Shown here piece by piece: positions 1-34,990 of a stretch of DNA of 34,990 nucleotides. The number at the start of each line of letters is the position of its first letter. Position 1 is the stretch's first letter. The stretch is from Occultella glacieicola. GTDB taxonomy: Bacteria > Actinomycetota > Actinomycetes > Actinomycetales > Beutenbergiaceae. The notes under the pieces were generated by a model. It was not told where the DNA came from. It searched no databases and worked only from the letters and a program-made list of their open reading frames with translations. The position numbers and the translations under genes are program-made. The stretch covers positions 186,001 to 220,990 of the forward strand of contig NZ_SMNA01000008.1 in NCBI RefSeq assembly GCF_004353825.1, given 5' to 3'.

Positions 1-1
1 C

Positions 2-2473
2 GCCCAGCTGGCCGCGGACCTGGTCCGGGTCGGCCTGGAGGAGGAGGCGGTGCACGCCGCGGGGGTGACCGGCCCGCTCGTGGTCGGCCGGGTGCTCGAG
101 GTGAACCCCGAGCCGCAGAAGAACGGCAAGACCATCAACTGGTGCCGGGTGGACGTCGGCGCCCACAACAACGCCGACGGCTCCGGCCGTGGGATCGTCT
201 GCGGCGCCCACAACTTCGCTGCGGGTGACTCCGTGGTGGTCGCCCTGCCCGGCGCCGTGCTGCCCGGCGACTTCGCGATCGCGGCCCGCAAGACGTACGG
301 CCACGTCTCCGACGGGATGATCTGCTCCGAGAGCGAGCTCGGCCTCGGCGAGGGACACGAGGGCATCATCGTGCTCGAGGACGCGCCCGCGCCGGGCACC
401 GACGCCATCGCGTTGCTCGGCCTCGGCGAGGAGGTCCTCGAGATCAATGTGACCCCGGACCGCGGCTACTGCTTCAGCGTGCGTGGGGTGGCCCGCGAGT
501 ACGGCCACTCCACCGGCGCCGCATTCACCGACCACGGGCTGCCGGGCCCGGACCTGCCGTCCGGCAACGACGCGGGCTTCGCCGTCGAACTCGCCGACGA
601 CGCCCCGATCCACGGGGTGCCCGGCGCGGACCGGTTCGTCGCCCGGATCGTCCGCGGCGTCGACACCACCGCGCCGACCCCGGACTGGATGGCCACCCGG
701 CTGCGCCAGGCCGGGATGCGCCCGATCTCCCTGGCGGTGGACATCACGAACTACGTGATGCTCGACCTCGGTCAGCCGCTGCACGCCTACGACCTGGCCA
801 CGCTGGCCGCCCCGATCGTGGTGCGCCGGGCCCGGGCGGGGGAGCGGCTCACCACCCTGGACGACGTCACCCGCACCCTGGACGCCGAGGATCTGTTGAT
901 CACCGACTCCCCGGACGCACCCGGGTCGCGCATCCTCGGCATCGCCGGAGTGATGGGCGGTGCCGACACAGAGGTGACGGACGCGACCACGGACGTGCTC
1001 ATCGAGGCGGCCCACTTCGACCAGATCTCGGTGGCCCGCAGCGCCCGACGGCACAAGCTGCCCAGCGAGGCCGCCAAGCGGTTCGAACGGGGCGTGGACA
1101 CCGCGCTGCAGGCGGTCGCCGCGCAGCGCGTCGTCGACCTGCTCGTGCAGTTCGCCGGCGGCTCACCCGATGCCGGGGTCACCGACCTCGACCGCACGAC
1201 GGCGCCCGAACCGATCGCGATCGACGTCACCCTGCCGGGTCGGCTGGTCGGGGTCGAGTACTCGGCCGAGACGGTGATCGCCACCCTCGAGTCGCTGGGC
1301 GCTCTGGTGGTCACCGGCGGCGCCGAGCTGCTGGTCACCCCGCCGACCTGGCGGGCCGACCTGACCGAGCCGGCCGACCTCGTCGAGGAGGTCGTGCGCC
1401 TGCAGGGCTACGACCGGGTGCCCTCGGTGCTTCCGGCCGCACCGCCGGGTGGTCGCGGGCTCAGCCTCACGCAGCGCCGCCGGCGCCGGGTGGCGAGCCT
1501 GCTCGCCGACTCCGGTCTCACCCAGGTGCTCACCTACCCGTTCATGGCCTCCTCACGGCACGACGACCTGGCGCTGCCCGAGGGTGATCCACGGCGCCGC
1601 GCCGTGCGGCTGGCGAACCCGCTGTCGGAGGCGATGCCGTACCTGCGGACCTCGCTGCTGCACACGCTGGTCGATGCCGCGGTGCGCAACGTCGGCCGTG
1701 GACTGACCGACGTCGCGATCTACGAGATCGGCATGGTCACCCGACCGGACGGCGCCGGCCACCCGTCGCCGCTTCCGCCCACCGGGGTCCGCCCGAGCGA
1801 TGCGGACCTGGACGCGATCCGGGCCGCCGTGCCCGCGCAGCCGCTGCGGGTGGCCGGCGTCCTGGCCGGCAGCCTGGTCCCGCCCGGCGTGTACACGCAG
1901 GCCCGGCGGGCCGATCACGCCGACGCCATCGCGCTCGTGCACCGGATCGCGCAGGCGACCGGCGTCACGCCCGTCGTCGAGGCGGACACCGAGTCCCTGC
2001 CCTGGCACCCGGGCCGGTGCGCGCGGTTCACCACGCCCGACGGCGTCCTGCTGGGCCACGCGGGCGAACTCGCCCCGAAGGTCACGGCGGCGCTGGGCCT
2101 GCCGGCCCGCACGGTGGCGTTCGAGGTGGACCTGGACGCCCTGTTCGACGCCGCGCCGAGCGAGCCGAAGCAGATCCCGCCGCTGTCGACGTTCCCGGCC
2201 GCGAAGGAGGACATCGCGCTGGTCGTCGACGCCGGCACGCCGGTCGCGGACGTGCTCGCCGCCGTGCGGGAGGGCGCCGGCGACCTGGCCGAGGACGTGC
2301 ACCTCTTCGACATCTACACGGGCGAGTCCGTGGGTGAGGGCAAGGCCTCGATGGCGTTCTCGCTGCGCCTGCGGGCCGCCGACCGCACGCTCACCGCCGC
2401 CGACACGGCGCAGGTGCGGGACGCCGTCGTGGCCCTCGCGGGCGAGCGGCTCGGCGCGCGGTTGCGCGCCTGA
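2..2473 (+). CDS. pheT: Phenylalanine--tRNA ligase beta subunit, 5' truncated by window edge
   Basis: Frame is open from position 2 (AQLAADLVRVGLEEE...). Motifs IVCGAHNF, SDGMICSESELG, EINVTPDRG, TNYVMLDLGQPLHAYD, AAKRFERGVD, DLVEEVVRLQGYD and a C-terminal FDX-ACB region (FDIYTG...SMAFSL). Confidence 0.98.
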   Translation, partial: AQLAADLVRVGLEEEAVHAAGVTGPLVVGRVLEVNPEPQKNGKTINWCRVDVGAHNNADGSGRGIVCGAHNFAAGDSVVVALPGAVLPGDFAIAARKTYGHVSDGMICSESELGLGEGHEGIIVLEDAPAPGTDAIALLGLGEEVLEINVTPDRGYCFSVRGVAREYGHSTGAAFTDHGLPGPDLPSGNDAGFAVELADDAPIHGVPGADRFVARIVRGVDTTAPTPDWMATRLRQAGMRPISLAVDITNYVMLDLGQPLHAYDLATLAAPIVVRRARAGERLTTLDDVTRTLDAEDLLITDSPDAPGSRILGIAGVMGGADTEVTDATTDVLIEAAHFDQISVARSARRHKLPSEAAKRFERGVDTALQAVAAQRVVDLLVQFAGGSPDAGVTDLDRTTAPEPIAIDVTLPGRLVGVEYSAETVIATLESLGALVVTGGAELLVTPPTWRADLTEPADLVEEVVRLQGYDRVPSVLPAAPPGGRGLSLTQRRRRRVASLLADSGLTQVLTYPFMASSRHDDLALPEGDPRRRAVRLANPLSEAMPYLRTSLLHTLVDAAVRNVGRGLTDVAIYEIGMVTRPDGAGHPSPLPPTGVRPSDADLDAIRAAVPAQPLRVAGVLAGSLVPPGVYTQARRADHADAIALVHRIAQATGVTPVVEADTESLPWHPGRCARFTTPDGVLLGHAGELAPKVTAALGLPARTVAFEVDLDALFDAAPSEPKQIPPLSTFPAAKEDIALVVDAGTPVADVLAAVREGAGDLAEDVHLFDIYTGESVGEGKASMAFSLRLRAADRTLTAADTAQVRDAVVALAGERLGARLRA

Positions 2474-25323: not shown

Positions 25324-29294
<3,971 letters not shown>

Positions 29295-29301
29295 GCCGAC
29301 C

Positions 29302-29928
29302 ATGAGCGACACCGCCCTCGACCTGACCCGGCGCAGTACTGCGCTCGCGACCGAGCTGCTCGGGGCCAGGATCACCTCCCGGGTCGGCGGGCAGGAGGTG
29401 ACCGTCCGGCTCGTCGAGGTCGAGGCCTACGAGGGCACCGACGACCCCGGATCGCACGCCTTCCGTGGCCCGACCCCGCGCAACGAGGTCATGTTCGGGC
29501 CGCCCGGTCGCCTCTACGTCTACCGACATCTCGGGCTGCACCACTGCGCCAATCTCGTCTGCGGTCCGGACGGCGTCGCCTCCGCGGTCCTGTTGCGTGC
29601 CGGTGAGGTGGTCGCCGGGACCGACGAGGCCCGACGGCGTCGGCTCGCCGCCGGCGTCTGCCGCACCGACCGGGATCTCGCCCGGGGCCCGGCGCGCCTG
29701 GCCGTCGCGCTCGGACTCACCCGTGAACACAACGCAGCCGTGGTCGCTCAGGCGCCGGACGCCGTCGGGCTCCTGAGCCTCGAACCCGGCCCACGGCCCG
29801 CCGCCGTGGCCAGCGGCGGCCGGGTCGGGGTCAGCGGCGCCGGCGGCGACGCCGCGCGGTTCGGCTGGCGGTACTGGATCGAGGGCGACCCGCACGTGTC
29901 CGCGTACCGGGCCGCCGGACGCCGTTAG
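29302..29928 (+). CDS. mpg: DNA-3-methyladenine glycosylase (MPG/AAG family)
   Basis: LVEVEAYEG.DDP.SHA, MFGPPGRLYVY, HHCAN.V, AVLLRAGE, LARGPARL, RVGVS. Confidence 0.95.
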   Translation: MSDTALDLTRRSTALATELLGARITSRVGGQEVTVRLVEVEAYEGTDDPGSHAFRGPTPRNEVMFGPPGRLYVYRHLGLHHCANLVCGPDGVASAVLLRAGEVVAGTDEARRRRLAAGVCRTDRDLARGPARLAVALGLTREHNAAVVAQAPDAVGLLSLEPGPRPAAVASGGRVGVSGAGGDAARFGWRYWIEGDPHVSAYRAAGRR

Positions 29929-29994
29929 GCTCGCTCTGGCCGGCAGGCCGCCGGCCCCGCATGCACCACCACCCCGAGAGGCAGAGAAGTAGAC

Positions 29995-31254
29995 GTGAAC
30001 GACATCCTCGACGAGCTGCGCTGGCGCGGTCTGATCGCCCAGTCCACCGATGAGTCGGCCCTGGCCGACGCGCTCGCGGCGGGGCCGGTCACCTACTACT
30101 GCGGTTTCGACCCGACGGCGCCGAGCCTGCACCACGGACACCTGGTCCAGTTGGTGCTGCTGCGGCACCTGCAACTGGCCGGCCACCGCGCCCTCGCGCT
30201 GGTCGGCGGCGCCACCGGGATGATCGGCGACCCGCGGATGTCCGGCGAACGGACCCTGAACGCCAAGGAGGTGGTGGCGGAGTGGACCGAACGACTGCGC
30301 AGCCAGATCTCCAGGTTCCTGGACTTCGAGGGCGACAACCCGGCGACCCTGGTGAACAACCTGGACTGGACCGCACCGCTGAGCGCGATCGACTTCCTCC
30401 GCGAGATCGGTAAGCACTACCGGCTCGGCACCATGCTCGCCAAGGACACCGTGGCCAGGCGGCTGAACAGCGACGAGGGCATCAGCTTCACGGAGTTCAG
30501 CTACCAGATCCTGCAGGGCATGGACTTCCTGGAGTTGCACCGCCGCTACGGTTGCACCCTGCAGACCGGCGGCAACGACCAGTGGGGCAACCTGCTCTCG
30601 GGAGTCGAGCTGATCCGCAAGTCCGACGGTGCCGCCGTGCACGTGCTCACCACCCCGCTGATCACGAAGGCCGACGGCACCAAGTTCGGCAAGAGCGAGG
30701 GCGGCGCGGTCTGGCTCGCGCCGGACATGATGAGCCCGTACGCGTTCTTCCAGTTCTGGCTGAACACCGACGACGCGGACGTGGTGGGCTACCTGAAGAT
30801 CTTCACGTTCGCCGACCGCGACCGCATCGGTGAGCTGGAGCGCGCGGTCGCCGAGGCGCCCCGGGCGCGCGAGGCCCAGCGGGTGCTCGCCCGCGAGGTG
30901 ACGACGCTGGTGCACGGCGCGGACGCCATGGCCCGGGTCGAGGCAGCCTCGGCGGCGCTGTTCGGCGGCGGCGACCTGTCGGGCCTCGACGCCGGTACCC
31001 TCGCCGACGCGGTGGCCGAGGTGCCCCGGGGGACCGTGGTGCCGGGGGAGTCCACGATCGTGGATGCCCTGGTGGCGACCGGGCTCGAGAAGGGCCGCAA
31101 CGCCGCCCGGCGCGTGGTCGGTGAGGGCGGTGCGTACCTGAACAACGTCAAGGTGGCCGACCCGGAGCAGGTGATCACCGAGGCCGACCTCCTCGCCGGC
31201 GGCGTGGCCCTGGTGCGCCGTGGCCGGCGCAACCTGGCGGTCGTCACCGCCTGA
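29995..31254 (+). CDS. tyrS: Tyrosine--tRNA ligase
   Basis: YCGFDPTAPSLHHGH, GGATGMIGDP, EFSYQILQG.D, GGNDQWGN, KFGKS, C-terminal S4 domain. Confidence 0.98.
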   Translation: MNDILDELRWRGLIAQSTDESALADALAAGPVTYYCGFDPTAPSLHHGHLVQLVLLRHLQLAGHRALALVGGATGMIGDPRMSGERTLNAKEVVAEWTERLRSQISRFLDFEGDNPATLVNNLDWTAPLSAIDFLREIGKHYRLGTMLAKDTVARRLNSDEGISFTEFSYQILQGMDFLELHRRYGCTLQTGGNDQWGNLLSGVELIRKSDGAAVHVLTTPLITKADGTKFGKSEGGAVWLAPDMMSPYAFFQFWLNTDDADVVGYLKIFTFADRDRIGELERAVAEAPRAREAQRVLAREVTTLVHGADAMARVEAASAALFGGGDLSGLDAGTLADAVAEVPRGTVVPGESTIVDALVATGLEKGRNAARRVVGEGGAYLNNVKVADPEQVITEADLLAGGVALVRRGRRNLAVVTA

Positions 31255-31379
31255 GCGGTTCGCGGCCGGTGGGCCCATCCCGGTGGCACCAGCTGCCGCG
31301 ATCGGAAGTCTGCCCGAACGGCCCTGGTGGGCCGACGGCGCGGCGCCCATAATGCTCGGGTGATCGAGAGGGCGCACCC

Positions 31380-34300
31380 GTGCGTGCGGTCCGGGAGCCC
31401 GACCTAGCCGGGATCAGAGGTCGGCGATCCGGCGCTACCACGCCGGCGTCTCGGCAGCGCCCGGCCGGCGTTGCCGACGCGCTCCTCGGCCTGCAGGCCA
31501 CCGCCGGGAACCGGGCCGTGGTCACCCTCCTGGACCCGTCAGTGCAGCGGCAGCCGCCGAAGCCGGCCCGCACGAGTGCGGGCTGGGCGAATGCCGACAC
31601 CGCCGCCGGCGGTGGGCCCGGCTGGAACGCCGCGGCCCGGAGCAGGGTGGGCGGCACCGGGATCCGGAGGATCCCGGTGGACGACCTGTCGGCGGGCAAC
31701 CAGTTGGAGTGGAGCCCGAACCGCGGCGAGCGCTCGAACGCCGCACACGAGCAGGCCGACACCAAGGAGACCGCCGCCGGGCGTGCGATCGTGCTCCTGC
31801 CCGAAGGTCTCGACGTCGACCGTCCCATCGACGTGCTGCTGCACCTGCACGGCTACACCGACCGGGCGGGGGACCCCGCGGCCGGCTGGCGGCAGGCGAG
31901 GACGCCGGTCACGAAGGATCAGAGAGCCTACAAGCCCGTTCGCGACGTCGACCAGGACCGGATCCTCGCGCAGGTGCACACGGTGACGAAGTCGAACCCG
32001 CAGACCCTGGGCATCCTGCCGCAGGGGGTCGGCCACTCCCACTTCGGCAAGAACTTCGTGCCCGGCGGCTATGTCAACGAGGTGATCCGTCGGCTGGAGG
32101 AGATCAAGGAACTGCCCGCCCCGAAGTCCGGCTCGCTCGCGGTCAACCTGATCCTGTCCGCGCACAGCGGCGGCGGGCACACGGTTCGCAAGGCGCTGGC
32201 CGCGGAGCTCGCCCAGGCGAAGGCCGACACCAGGGCGGCCGCGAAGGCGAAGAGGGCGGGACGCGAGCCGCCGGCCCCGACGGCGCAACCCGGGGCCGCC
32301 GGGGGCACGGGTGGCCGAGTCGCCCCCGTGCTGAACCCGGTCCAGGTCGTGCTGTTCGAGGCGATCAACAACGCCCGTGAACTGACCACGGTCCGGGACT
32401 GGGTGTACCTGCACCTCAACCGGACCAGGGCCGCACTCGATGCCGAGACCAACCCGATCCTCAAGGCCTGGATCATCATCGGCTGCCCGACGCTGCGTGC
32501 CTACCGCTCGGCCACGAACGGGATGTACGCCACCCTGTACCGCGACCTCACGATCGCGATCGACAGGTGGTTCACCGACCCCTCGTTGGGCGGACAGCTG
32601 GAGCCGGGCGCGAAGCAGTTGCTCCGCGACCGGTTCCGGGTGGAGGTGCTGCACGGCGTGGTCAGCCAACCGGGCGGCCTGTCCGGGCACGAGCAGGTCG
32701 TGGCCGGCCTCGGGACGCCCGAGCAGGGGCCCCTCGCCGACGCGCTGGCCGCGCGCTCGGATCCGTCCGCCTCGAACCTGCTCAAGGGGCCTCCCCGCGG
32801 GTCCCAGGCCGCCCCGGGAAACCCCAAGGCGCCGGGACCGAAGAAGGCCCCGAAGCAGAAGAAGGCCCCGAAACAGAAGAAGGCCGCCGCCGCTGGATCC
32901 GCACGAGCAGACCAGCCTCCGACCGGGTCGGGCGCGGCGGCTTCCACCGGCGCCGCCGCCGCGGTGGGGGCACCGGCGATCACCTTCGGCCGCCGTGCCC
33001 GCCGGGACACCGTGGCCGCCTCCACCCTGACGGTGCTCGCCCAGATCCTGACGACGGCCGGCATCGGAAGCGCGACTATCAGCAGCACCGCCCGCACCCC
33101 GCCCGACCAGGCGCGTGCGATGTACGCCAACCTCGTCGGGACCGGGGCGAACCAGGGCGTGGCGAAGCAGCGTGCCCTGTACGGCTCGGCGGGGGACAAG
33201 ATCATCGACGAGTTCGAGAGACTGCGCGACGAGGGCGGCGCCCCGGCCGAGATCCAGGCCGGCATGGTGGCTCGGATCGAGTCGATCGGGCCCGGCAAGG
33301 TCTCCAAGCACTTGGCCGATCCGGCGACGCTGAACGTCCTCGACATCGCACCCACCTCGCTCGGCGGGAGCACGGCGATCGCTCGGTTCGAGGCAGCGGC
33401 CGAGGCCCTGGTGGGCACGCAGGTCTCGCGGCTGCTGACCCCCGGCGGTGGTGACCCCGCCGAGCACCTGGAGATCAAACCGGCAGGCGACGGCGTCGTG
33501 GGCGCGACGGATGCGCCCGCCGGTCAGGGCGGCTCGGCCGGGAGGAAGCCGGCGAAACGCCCCGTCGCGGAGAAGGCGCCTGAGAAGCGACTCGTGGGAG
33601 CGAGGGCCAAGAATCCGGCCGGCGAGAAGATCACGGCGCTCGCGCCCGAGAAGGTCAGGACGCCCACCCCCGACGCCGGCGCTCAGGCCTCGACTACGGC
33701 CACCACGGCCGAGGCCGGATCGGGCACCGGCTCAGCGGAGACGAAGGCGTGGATCCTCGACGTCACCCGGACCACCCTCGAGCGCCTGCCGAAGAAGGAG
33801 CGGGAGCGGTACGAGCAGATCCCATGGAACGACCTCGACTACCCGGGAGCCTCGTTCAGGATCGAGGACACCTCCGCGGAGAACCTGCTCGCGTGGCGCT
33901 CGAAACCGGGGTACGAGGTCTTCGACGTGACGAAGAAGACGAAGAAGGGCGAGGTCGTCACCTGGTACGTGCGCGGTACCCACCAGAAGGACGCCGCGGC
34001 CCTCCTGCGGGCCCTGTCCGCGCGCCGCCCCGGCGGTGGCGAGCGGCGGGTCAACACCGGGCCGAACGCCATCCTGACCAAGGCTCAGTTCCGCGCGGAC
34101 CCGGACGCGTTCGACGACTACATCATCAGCCAGCTCGTCGACCCTCCCGGCGAGAAGAAGGCCGGCACCCGCAAGATGATCAACAAGCACGCCTCGCCCC
34201 AGTTCGTGGCGATGCGTGAGGCGGCGGCCAAGGACGGCGTCTCGTTGAGCATCGGCAACGCGTTCCGGGAACGCAAGCGGGCCGAGACGGCGGCGAAGAA

Positions 34301-34580
34301 GAAGGGGAACCGCTTCTCCACGGCCAGCTACTCCCCACACTCCCTCGGCCTGGCCCTCGACCTCAACCTGCGCACCAAGAGCCTCAAGGACGTGGACGAG
34401 GTGACCACCCGCATGACGAACACGATGAAGCTCCTCGGTGCCCCGGCGTACAAGTGGATGTTCGAGCACGGTGCGGACTTCGGCTTCTTCCAGTACCGCA
34501 ACGAACCCTGGCACTGGGAGTACAACCCGTCCGGGTTCGGCGCGACGTTCTGGGCCGACCAACCCGGCCTGGCTCCCTGA
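31380..34580 (+). CDS. 1066-aa multidomain protein: LQxxAGNRAV/VQR leader, alpha/beta-hydrolase-like domain, M15-like domain, C-terminal VanY/M15B D,D-carboxypeptidase-like domain
   Basis: CATAAT (31348-53) and SD GAGAGGG precede the GTG. Motifs: LLHLHGY and LSAHSGGG; SSTARTPPDQ...SKH...D...HLEI; AFR...SPHSLGLALD...EPWHWEY. Confidence 0.8.
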   Translation: MRAVREPDLAGIRGRRSGATTPASRQRPAGVADALLGLQATAGNRAVVTLLDPSVQRQPPKPARTSAGWANADTAAGGGPGWNAAARSRVGGTGIRRIPVDDLSAGNQLEWSPNRGERSNAAHEQADTKETAAGRAIVLLPEGLDVDRPIDVLLHLHGYTDRAGDPAAGWRQARTPVTKDQRAYKPVRDVDQDRILAQVHTVTKSNPQTLGILPQGVGHSHFGKNFVPGGYVNEVIRRLEEIKELPAPKSGSLAVNLILSAHSGGGHTVRKALAAELAQAKADTRAAAKAKRAGREPPAPTAQPGAAGGTGGRVAPVLNPVQVVLFEAINNARELTTVRDWVYLHLNRTRAALDAETNPILKAWIIIGCPTLRAYRSATNGMYATLYRDLTIAIDRWFTDPSLGGQLEPGAKQLLRDRFRVEVLHGVVSQPGGLSGHEQVVAGLGTPEQGPLADALAARSDPSASNLLKGPPRGSQAAPGNPKAPGPKKAPKQKKAPKQKKAAAAGSARADQPPTGSGAAASTGAAAAVGAPAITFGRRARRDTVAASTLTVLAQILTTAGIGSATISSTARTPPDQARAMYANLVGTGANQGVAKQRALYGSAGDKIIDEFERLRDEGGAPAEIQAGMVARIESIGPGKVSKHLADPATLNVLDIAPTSLGGSTAIARFEAAAEALVGTQVSRLLTPGGGDPAEHLEIKPAGDGVVGATDAPAGQGGSAGRKPAKRPVAEKAPEKRLVGARAKNPAGEKITALAPEKVRTPTPDAGAQASTTATTAEAGSGTGSAETKAWILDVTRTTLERLPKKERERYEQIPWNDLDYPGASFRIEDTSAENLLAWRSKPGYEVFDVTKKTKKGEVVTWYVRGTHQKDAAALLRALSARRPGGGERRVNTGPNAILTKAQFRADPDAFDDYIISQLVDPPGEKKAGTRKMINKHASPQFVAMREAAAKDGVSLSIGNAFRERKRAETAAKKKGNRFSTASYSPHSLGLALDLNLRTKSLKDVDEVTTRMTNTMKLLGAPAYKWMFEHGADFGFFQYRNEPWHWEYNPSGFGATFWADQPGLAP
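32840..32885 (+). repeat. 18-bp tandem repeat (about 2.5 copies) encoding the KKAPKQ linker
   Basis: GAAGAAGGCCCCGAAGCA / GAAGAAGGCCCCGAAACA / GAAGAAGGCC. Confidence 0.85.
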
Positions 34581-34627
34581 CCCCACGGCGACCATGGGGG
34601 GCGTGACCGGGGTCACGCGCCAGGGAT

Positions 34628-34656
34628 TTGACCCTGCGGAACCTGACCCGTAGTGT
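34628..34656 (+). promoter_or_regulatory. rRNA operon promoter (upstream)
   Basis: TTGACC-17 nt-TAGTGT, followed by GTTGCCCC (34665-72). Confidence 0.8.
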
Positions 34657-34841
34657 TTCACCTCGTTGCCCCGACAGGGAGGAACGGACACCGCGAGGTG
34701 GACGGTCCCGGACAGAGGGCACGAACCCCCGGCAGTCACCCGATGCGATGCATCGAGGAGCGACACGACGGGCCTTGGACCACGGTCCATCGGAACACGT
34801 CCCACGCCTTCCCGGCAGCACTTCACGCCGGGGCACGGGAT

Positions 34842-34870
34842 TTGACGATGGGGATGCGGGAGGCTAAGGT
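34842..34870 (+). promoter_or_regulatory. rRNA operon promoter (downstream)
   Basis: TTGACG-17 nt-TAAGGT, followed by GTTGCCCC (34877-84). Confidence 0.82.
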
Positions 34871-34922
34871 TGAGAGGTTGCCCCAGCGAGGATCTTGGTT
34901 GGTCTGGTGTTGGTGCGCGTCC

Positions 34923-34990
34923 GCTCCTTGAGAACTCAACAGTGTGTCATATGATCGATGCCGAATAGTTTGTTTATTTGGTTTGACCAG
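34923..34990 (+). promoter_or_regulatory. rrn leader with boxA-like conserved sequence; 16S rRNA expected just beyond the window
   Basis: GCTCCTTGAGAACTCAACAG resembles the actinobacterial rrn leader/boxA; sharp drop in GC; tyrS-rrn synteny. Confidence 0.82.

Follow-up and report, generated by a model that had tools for sequence, protein, structure and literature searches.

The DNA of Occultella glacieicola analysed here raises the question of how a large protein with predicted cell-envelope hydrolase modules could reach its substrate when it has no recognizable export signal. The window, meaning the whole stretch of 34,990 nucleotides (nt) that was examined (RefSeq assembly GCF_004353825.1, contig NZ_SMNA01000008.1, positions 186,001 to 220,990), contains near its end an open reading frame (ORF), P0001, encoding a protein of 1066 residues. 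A first-pass annotation, made from the letters of the sequence, had proposed that this protein may be a multi-warhead cargo or effector of a contractile injection system (CIS) encoded elsewhere, or may be set free when the cell lyses. Of the three kinds of finding that the annotation had named as refuting its idea, none was made. Several genomic tests and structure models support the first of these proposals, and from them we infer that the protein is loaded into CIS particles. With somewhat more confidence than doubt, the protein can be described from its sequence as an orphan CIS cargo that lacks DUF4157 and carries cell-envelope hydrolase modules. The coordinates of its parts and of the surrounding features are listed in Table 1.

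The start of the protein is well constrained, because the GTG at 31380 is the only ATG, GTG or TTG codon that lies after the preceding in-frame stop and ahead of the conserved motif. A Kyte-Doolittle hydropathy scan of the whole protein shows neither a Sec or Tat signal nor a transmembrane helix, in agreement with the earlier claim that a hydrophobic signal peptide and membrane helices are missing. The highest 19-residue mean, 1.48, is found at residue 545, within module 2. The maximum 12-residue hydropathy in residues 1-70 is 1.25 and is situated inside the amphipathic leader helix, with nothing else hydrophobic in that region. A search for an alternative start that might supply a Sec or Tat signal found no upstream in-frame start and no signal. 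Because there is no such signal, the protein appears, as far as the sequence can tell, to be made in the cytoplasm and not to be exported by the Sec or Tat route.

The N-terminal leader carries in its helices the motif LLGLQATAGNRAVVTLL, which is of the LQxxAGNxAV type. The DUF4157 protein P0027, encoded in the CIS locus of the same genome, has the corresponding LLRLQRTVGNAGV at residues 51-63, N-terminal to its eCIS_core domain. In the 10.68 million residues of the six-frame translation of the genome, a regular expression for the motif matches six sites, all of them 32-53 residues after the plausible start of a long ORF; the reversed motif matches none. A hidden Markov model (HMM) of the leader, trained on 63 relatives that all come from other genomes, finds nine ORFs of this genome at E<0.01, among them the 1066-residue ORF with an E-value of 4.9e-6 and the in-locus protein with one of 0.003. 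About eight other genes, scattered over the genome and having unrelated bodies, are headed by the leader. The strict motif is also present at residues 3-70, with a median position of 38, in 67 of 170 relatives. A VanY or Peptidase_M15_4 domain follows in 48 of these 67, twice together with a GH46 chitosanase domain; no Pfam family matches 18 of them, and eCIS_core is present in two. Relative P0144 joins the leader, eCIS_core and VanY in one chain.

The other leader-bearing ORFs are diverse. Two of them are 3 kb apart on contig C3, one contains an AHEFGH (HExxH) motif, the one on contig C23 has an NCWE...GHVA pattern that was read as papain-like, and one of 846 residues finishes in EEDPRDRRR repeats. 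Hardly any of them belongs to a Pfam family: searches with seven of these ORFs gave weak matches only (SH3_3, E 2e-4; DUF4329, E 0.02). Relative P0026, which is 1309 residues long, has the leader motif at residue 62 and again internally at residue 574, as if two cargo genes had been fused.

A search of the genome for extracellular CIS (eCIS) loci, which the first-pass annotation had suggested, revealed a complete set of CIS genes on contig C11 at about 166-186 kb. The locus begins with a LuxR-type regulator, a 1127-residue PD40/DUF11 protein, a Pvc16_N terminator, a WHD+AAA ATPase and the eCIS_core (DUF4157) protein. These are followed by the sheath, the tube, a 151-residue ORF, an 1129-residue ORF, a second tube protein, CIS_tube/gpU, a VgrG-like spike and gp25. 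The 151-residue and 1129-residue ORFs match no Pfam family. The eCIS_core protein has a C-terminal FVQREGEEEELQGA repeat. Structure prediction of a complex between the leader (residues 1-62) and the CIS AAA+ ATPase (P0173, residues 86-834) returned a score of 0.00 twice, without controls, and carries no weight in either direction.

The distribution of the motif across genomes follows that of the CIS. A 30-nt degenerate DNA pattern for LQxxAGNxAV was compared with Pvc16_N as the marker of a CIS; its reversed form, the control, matched nowhere. Within the family the pattern is present in seven of 36 genomes, all seven being among the 14 that are Pvc16_N-positive and none among the 22 negative ones. 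In an even sample of the order (301 genomes) it occurs in 12 genomes, 11 of 45 with Pvc16_N and one of 256 without (Fisher p = 2.8e-9), while the reversed pattern, used as a control, occurs in none of the 301. Counted by genus, eight of nine pattern-positive genera are CIS-positive, compared with 27 of 101 genera overall (p = 8e-5). Some of the pattern sites are situated 2-6 kb from Pvc16_N (in genomes G034, G076 and G124) and others are distant from it. The occurrence of the motif in the in-locus DUF4157 protein, its association with the CIS across genomes and the relative that combines the leader with eCIS_core and VanY uphold the earlier assignment of an eCIS-type leader.

Loci homologous to the first module of the protein were sought in one genome per species, using an alignment of 12 module-1 sequences as the query. 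Ten loci were found: in two Nakamurella metagenome-assembled genomes (MAGs; 63-65% identity), four Chloroflexota, two strains of Georgenia satyanarayanai, a Kineosporiaceae MAG and an Acidobacteriaceae MAG. Most of these genomes encode a CIS, eight of the ten carrying Pvc16_N. In the Acidobacteriaceae MAG the genes for a CIS tape measure and an AAA protein directly precede the homologue (L027, 9446-13754). The homologue occupies two overlapping frames, owing to either a frameshift or an assembly error, and the second frame continues into eCIS_core and about 850 further residues; another eCIS_core gene comes after it. The Nakamurella and Georgenia homologues are orphans whose surroundings are unrelated, located beside a PASTA kinase and a GNAT gene, and beside an ABC transporter.

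The protein was modelled with AlphaFold2 in two parts, from alignments of its relatives, and both models are confident: residues 1-500 (mean predicted local distance difference test score, pLDDT, 87.6; predicted template-modelling score 0.83) and residues 517-1066 (pLDDT 84.9). They show three folded parts and two unstructured linkers, as expected from the earlier description of three modules separated by Pro/Ala/Lys-rich segments. Residues 481-545 consist to 77% of P, A, G, K, S and T. Linker 1 contains an in-frame 18-nt tandem repeat at 32826-32885, present in three copies that are 79-83% alike and encoding KAPGPKKAPKQKKAPKQKK. In linker 2 the pLDDT is below 50 over residues ~705-778 (model residues 189-262), and P, A, G, K, S and T make up 68% of residues 706-795.

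Residues 1-930 match no Pfam or NCBIfam family. The model of module 1 is an alpha/beta hydrolase, with a serine esterase fold of the kind seen in CE1 enzymes, esterase D and antigen 85. A Foldseek search gave 79 PDB chains at E<=1e-3, those among the matches listed being serine hydrolases or related proteins of the alpha/beta-hydrolase fold. The sequence contains HLHG at residues 155-158, AHSGG at 261-265 with Ser263, Glu327 and His437. The nucleophile elbow A-H-S263-G-G comes straight after the strand formed by residues 255-262. In an alignment of 51 sequences, His262 and Gly264 are invariant and Ser263 and His437 are at least 90% conserved, and all 12 module-1 sequences of alignment A1 have Glu or Asp at position 327. 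The serine-hydrolase-like module of the first-pass annotation is confirmed by this fold and by the conservation of Ser263, His437 and Glu327. Module 1 shares only 8-17% sequence identity with the CE1 feruloyl and acetyl-xylan esterases, esterase D/S-formylglutathione hydrolase and the antigen 85 mycolyltransferases. It differs from them in its A-H-S-G-G elbow and in its acid, which is apparently a Glu or Asp after strand 6, and it also has a long insertion of helices and a loop (residues 301-320) that is disordered. Judged from the model, it likely hydrolyses an ester-linked substituent of the envelope.

Module 3 consists of an N-terminal extension of about 105 residues (785-889) followed by a zinc peptidase core. 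Pfam PF02557 (VanY/Peptidase M15B) matches residues 933-1050 with 39.8 bits, against a gathering cut-off of 25, and the predicted model has the fold of the LAS superfamily. In an alignment of 11 sequences (A7), Arg963, Ser985, His987, Asp994, Glu1042 and His1045 are all invariant; the zinc ligands H-x6-D ... H, the catalytic Glu and the substrate-binding Arg are thus retained. According to the model, the module is a zinc carboxypeptidase fold of the VanY/LdcB type with all catalytic residues kept, which likely trims the peptidoglycan stem peptide. Compared with the D,D- and L,D-carboxypeptidases of this group (MEROPS M15B, LAS superfamily), it has the additional extension, and whereas the VanY and LdcB enzymes have a membrane anchor or signal, module 3 is the end of a multidomain protein with neither.

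Module 2 is a strongly conserved domain of about 165 residues that is well folded in the model. Ser569, Arg572, Gln577, Tyr582, Ser642, His644, Asp655, Pro693 and His696 are invariant, and Asp647, Asp692 and Glu698 nearly so. The order of these residues recalls the LAS peptidases, but their spacing departs from SxHxxGxAxD. Comparison of the module 2 and module 3 profiles with hhalign gave a probability of 0.13%, or 0.25% with larger alignments (50 and 82 sequences), and module 2 was therefore rejected as a paralogue of module 3. None of 18 module-2 sequences (A6) matches a peptidase or LAS family of Pfam at E<=1. A profile search of the PDB found nothing relevant, its sole match being a designed helical repeat (E 1.6), and a search with a protein language model returned VanY clusters at 0.87-0.88, which is under the reliability mark of that method. 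On this sequence evidence module 2 is a conserved, enzyme-like domain of toxin type and possibly a divergent LAS peptidase. The first-pass annotation had described two zinc-peptidase-like modules. The C-terminal one is established by Pfam and by its fold, while module 2, a genuine and conserved domain, is a candidate peptidase at most; two of the three modules are thus hydrolase folds with intact catalytic residues.

The modules are freely recombined among relatives. An exhaustive HMMER search found 1684 representatives at E<=1e-3, 825 at 1e-10 and 102 at 1e-30, in which the three modules are matched independently in proteins of varied length. In the alignment of close relatives, some proteins consist of the leader with modules 1 and 3, one has the leader with modules 2 and 3, one carries an additional M15-like domain and one joins module 1 to DUF4157.

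The gene occupies a single frame, as had been described, and is located between tyrS and the leader of a ribosomal RNA (rrn) operon. This placement, too, was stated in the first-pass annotation, and it holds: tyrS is an equivalog match to TIGR00234 (364.8 bits, cut-off 113.8), and what follows the gene closely matches the sequence ahead of the 16S rRNA in G016, a complete genome from the genus. There, about 240 nt separate tyrS from a nearly identical counterpart of window positions 34640-34990, so that tyrS leads directly into rrn with no gene between. Because the ORF is missing there, comparison of the two genomes indicates that the gene is an insertion of about 3.3 kb that parts tyrS from the rrn leader. 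Contigs of two draft genomes from the genus stop 587 and 716 nt past tyrS, which leaves no room in them for the gene. Residues 1-500 of the protein have no match in any of the 35 other genomes of the family, three of which belong to the genus. A search for repeats, direct or inverted, on either side of the insert found none that is convincing.

The -10-like and Shine-Dalgarno-like sequences that the first-pass annotation assigned to the gene are both present, the latter 7 nt ahead of the GTG; a consensus promoter scan for two hexamers (-35 and -10) reported no site at the -10-like hexamer. The same scan found a promoter-like site at 34928-34955 in the rrn leader region. From the stop codon to the contig end there are 410 nt, and the rrn leader region is cut off about 135 nt short of the 16S rRNA. 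Rfam has no match over window positions 29000-34990. The window holds no rRNA, and 16S rRNA is absent from the whole assembly. Window positions 34581-34990 and positions 60132-60481 of contig C8 end in an identical 40-mer and are 76% alike over the 376 nt upstream. This shared contig end, together with the lack of an assembled 16S rRNA, indicates that at least two rrn operons were collapsed out of the assembly. Upstream of tyrS are a DNA-3-methyladenine glycosylase gene (29134-29928) and a PRK06547-like, uridine-kinase-related ORF (28413-29294), the score of which is under the cut-off of that family. When called as longest ORFs these two overlap by about 160 nt, and for this reason their starts are probably further downstream.

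Table 1. Features of the 1066-residue ORF, its surroundings in the window and the other leader-bearing ORFs of the genome
Feature	Position	Residues	Strand	Basis or remark
tyrS (tyrosine--tRNA ligase), upstream neighbour	29995..31254		+	TIGR00234 equivalog
-10-like hexamer CATAAT	31348..31353		+	by eye from sequence
Shine-Dalgarno-like GAGAGGG	31366..31372		+	by eye from sequence
1066-residue ORF (P0001)	31380..34580	1-1066	+	GTG start; end coordinate takes in stop codon
Leader	31380..31553	1-58	+	disordered at residues 1-26 (pLDDT <50), helices at residues 31-50 (DSSP)
Motif of LQxxAGNxAV type	31482..31532	35-51	+	in leader helices
Module 1, alpha/beta-hydrolase serine esterase (model)	31572..32765	65-462	+	fold and conserved residues
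Linker 1, Pro/Ala/Lys-rich	32766..32954	~463-525	+	composition; pLDDT dropping at end of first model
Module 2, conserved domain, no Pfam family	32955..33488	526-703	+	
Linker 2, Pro/Ala/Lys/Thr-rich, disordered	33489..33731	~704-784	+	pLDDT <50; composition
Module 3, N-terminal extension and VanY/LdcB (M15B) zinc peptidase core (model)	33732..34577	785-1066 (core 890-1053)	+	
rrn leader/promoter region	34640..34990		+	near-identity to pre-16S region of complete same-genus genome
Other leader-bearing ORFs	C3: 51.7 kb, 54.9 kb; C17: 2.8 kb, 423.6 kb; C18: 125.2, 400.5, 451.8 kb; C23: 153.9 kb			

A mechanism can be proposed by analogy with the cargo of known systems. Loading of AlgoCIS cargo into the tube requires a disordered N-terminal domain of the cargo, does not need DUF4157 and is mediated by an AAA+ protein (bioRxiv 10.64898/2026.05.27.728243). 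Because the disordered N-terminal sequences of PVC and AlgoCIS cargo are needed for loading dependent on an AAA+ ATPase, the leader of the 1066-residue protein may likewise act as a tag that directs this cytoplasmic protein into or onto the CIS particle. Contraction of the sheath would then expel the protein, and its three modules, spaced by flexible basic linkers of 60-80 residues, would act on the cell envelope. Module 1 would cleave an ester-linked envelope substituent and module 3 would trim the stem peptide of peptidoglycan. The wall attacked might be that of a competitor or, from within, that of the producer itself.

Of the hallmarks of eCIS toxins, the protein has a CIS in its genome, a disordered leader common to the in-locus protein and to other ORFs, and no Sec signal. 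A number of observations, however, weigh against this assignment. Two hallmarks are missing, namely proximity to the operon (about ten genes) and a DUF4157 domain or neighbour, and 88% of known eCIS toxins are found within ten genes of the operon (PMC11297309). The gene is on contig C22 and the CIS on contig C11; the sole match to PF13699 (eCIS_core) in the genome is on C11, with none in the 1066-residue protein, and no neighbour encodes DUF4157. The three remaining genomes of the genus all have a CIS but lack the gene, and for this reason it is not a core part of the system. The DNA pattern used in the co-occurrence test is codon-specific and catches three of the six motif sites of this genome; it is present in only 11 of the 45 CIS-positive genomes of the order, one CIS-negative genome (G161) carries it, and the p-values overstate the association because the genomes are related. 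Among the genomes with module-1 homologues, one Chloroflexia MAG and one Georgenia strain have no Pvc16_N, which the other Georgenia strain has. A search with leader residues 18-62 in a database of 5.8 billion proteins gave 94 word-sharing candidates and none at E<=10, the leader alone being too short to reach significance in so large a database. No conserved, immunity-like small neighbour is found at the loci compared or beside the gene.

The alternative that survives best, although we regard it as fairly unlikely, is that the protein is a cell-wall hydrolase set free by lysis, carried out in membrane vesicles or exported through a non-classical pathway that has escaped recognition. The motif would then be a pro-region, or a regulatory or wall-targeting segment, that shares ancestry with the N-termini of DUF4157 proteins, a reading of the leader to which we give the same small credence. 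The absence of a Sec or Tat signal, the location of the gene away from the CIS locus, its lack of DUF4157 and its own promoter-like and Shine-Dalgarno-like elements all fit this alternative. It does not readily account for the association of the motif with the CIS (11 of 45 genomes as opposed to one of 256), for the motif in the in-locus DUF4157 protein or for the module-1 homologue inside a CIS locus.

Type VII secretion, dependent on ESX/WXG100, is the route of many Gram-positive polymorphic toxins, and it is improbable that the protein is a substrate of that system. The module-2 relative P0155 is fused to WXG100 (E 3.7e-6) and has a weak LXG match (E 0.14). This fusion and the free recombination of modules among the 1684 relatives indicate the behaviour of polymorphic toxins. 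Another relative of module 2, P0105, is fused to PG_binding_1; because of these two fusions module 2 may, judging by its sequence relatives, serve both type VII secretion and secreted wall enzymes. In the 1066-residue protein itself, however, Pfam finds neither WXG100 nor LXG, and the N-terminus is the leader linked to the CIS.

It is equally improbable that the protein is a housekeeping or resistance enzyme which trims UDP-MurNAc-pentapeptide in the manner of VanY and never leaves the cytoplasm. VanY-type enzymes can act on peptidoglycan precursors, as in the VanX and VanY families, and a cytoplasmic enzyme would need no export signal. Against this, the gene is accessory, being absent from all 35 other genomes of the family. 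Its three modules are fused through long disordered linkers and are swapped between proteins, and the NCBIfam model of VanY resistance proteins scores 16.9 bits where the cut-off is 425. The combination of an esterase with an M15 peptidase recalls the lysis cassettes of actinophages, and the M15 endolysins 2vo9, 6akv and 8q2g are among the fold matches, but a remnant lysin of fused LysA/LysB-like peptidase and esterase left by a prophage was rejected as hardly credible, as a tblastn search of 50,697 phage records gave one marginal match (E 7e-4, 11% of the query) and neither phage genes nor repeats flank the gene, which has tyrS on one side and the rrn leader on the other.

If the protein is CIS cargo, several consequences follow. 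Most known CIS and eCIS effectors adjoin the genes of the machine, and those of Gram-positive systems are poorly known. A tag that identifies cargo anywhere in a genome, follows the CIS and occurs without DUF4157 would make the payload of a CIS directly listable and testable. The payload in this genome would include enzymes that cleave peptidoglycan and esters, and the leader would be a candidate loading tag for the engineering of actinobacterial CIS. Two uncharacterized enzyme domains are added as well: a divergent esterase, and a domain of about 165 residues that is also fused to WXG100/LXG and peptidoglycan-binding domains. In its boldest form, which is a long shot, the proposal would make LQxxAGNxAV a portable packaging tag of CIS across phyla that works without DUF4157 and marks about eight dispersed orphan cargo genes, with the three-module protein as the wall-demolition payload of a Gram-positive, possibly cytoplasmic, CIS. 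The wall could then be the producer's own, struck from inside, and the protein an executioner in CIS-dependent cell death of actinobacteria.

The proposed mechanism also draws on published work on related systems. DUF4157 marks many eCIS toxins, and packaging extends to cargo of more than 1100 residues (PMC11297309). In Streptomyces coelicolor, Sco4256-4258 are effectors that resemble one another at the N-terminus, and "cell envelope-targeting effectors" have been proposed for CIS-dependent lysis (PMC10066040). Streptomyces effectors linked to DUF4157 are described in PMC11126660, PMC13277306 and PMC10020575, the available parts of which make no mention of the motif or of VanY-type cargo. A full-text literature search with six spellings of LQxxAGNxAV found no paper, and the titles and abstract openings that were found describe no DUF4157-linked carboxypeptidase cargo of a CIS; supplementary files were outside the scope of both results.

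The peptidoglycan-hydrolase effectors of type VI secretion (Tae/Tge and the L,D-carboxypeptidase effectors) and the LXG toxins of type VII secretion resemble the 1066-residue protein in the specialized or contractile secretion of wall-degrading enzymes and in the exchange of toxin domains. They differ from it in the delivery machine and the leader, and no adjacent immunity gene is seen here. Closer are the eCIS-associated toxins and other CIS cargo, such as PVC Pdp1 and Pnf, AlgoCIS Cgo1 and Cgo2, Streptomyces Sco4256-4258, Tme, and Sle1 and Sle2. The gene differs from theirs in lying apart from the CIS locus and in lacking DUF4157, both in the protein and in a neighbour, and in place of one effector domain this protein has, as judged from the gene and the models, three enzymatic modules. 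It shares with them a disordered leader that is no Sec signal and stands ahead of a variable C-terminal effector, a genome that encodes a CIS with an AAA+ ATPase, a leader common to several cargo proteins and a length for which cargo of more than 1000 residues provides a precedent.

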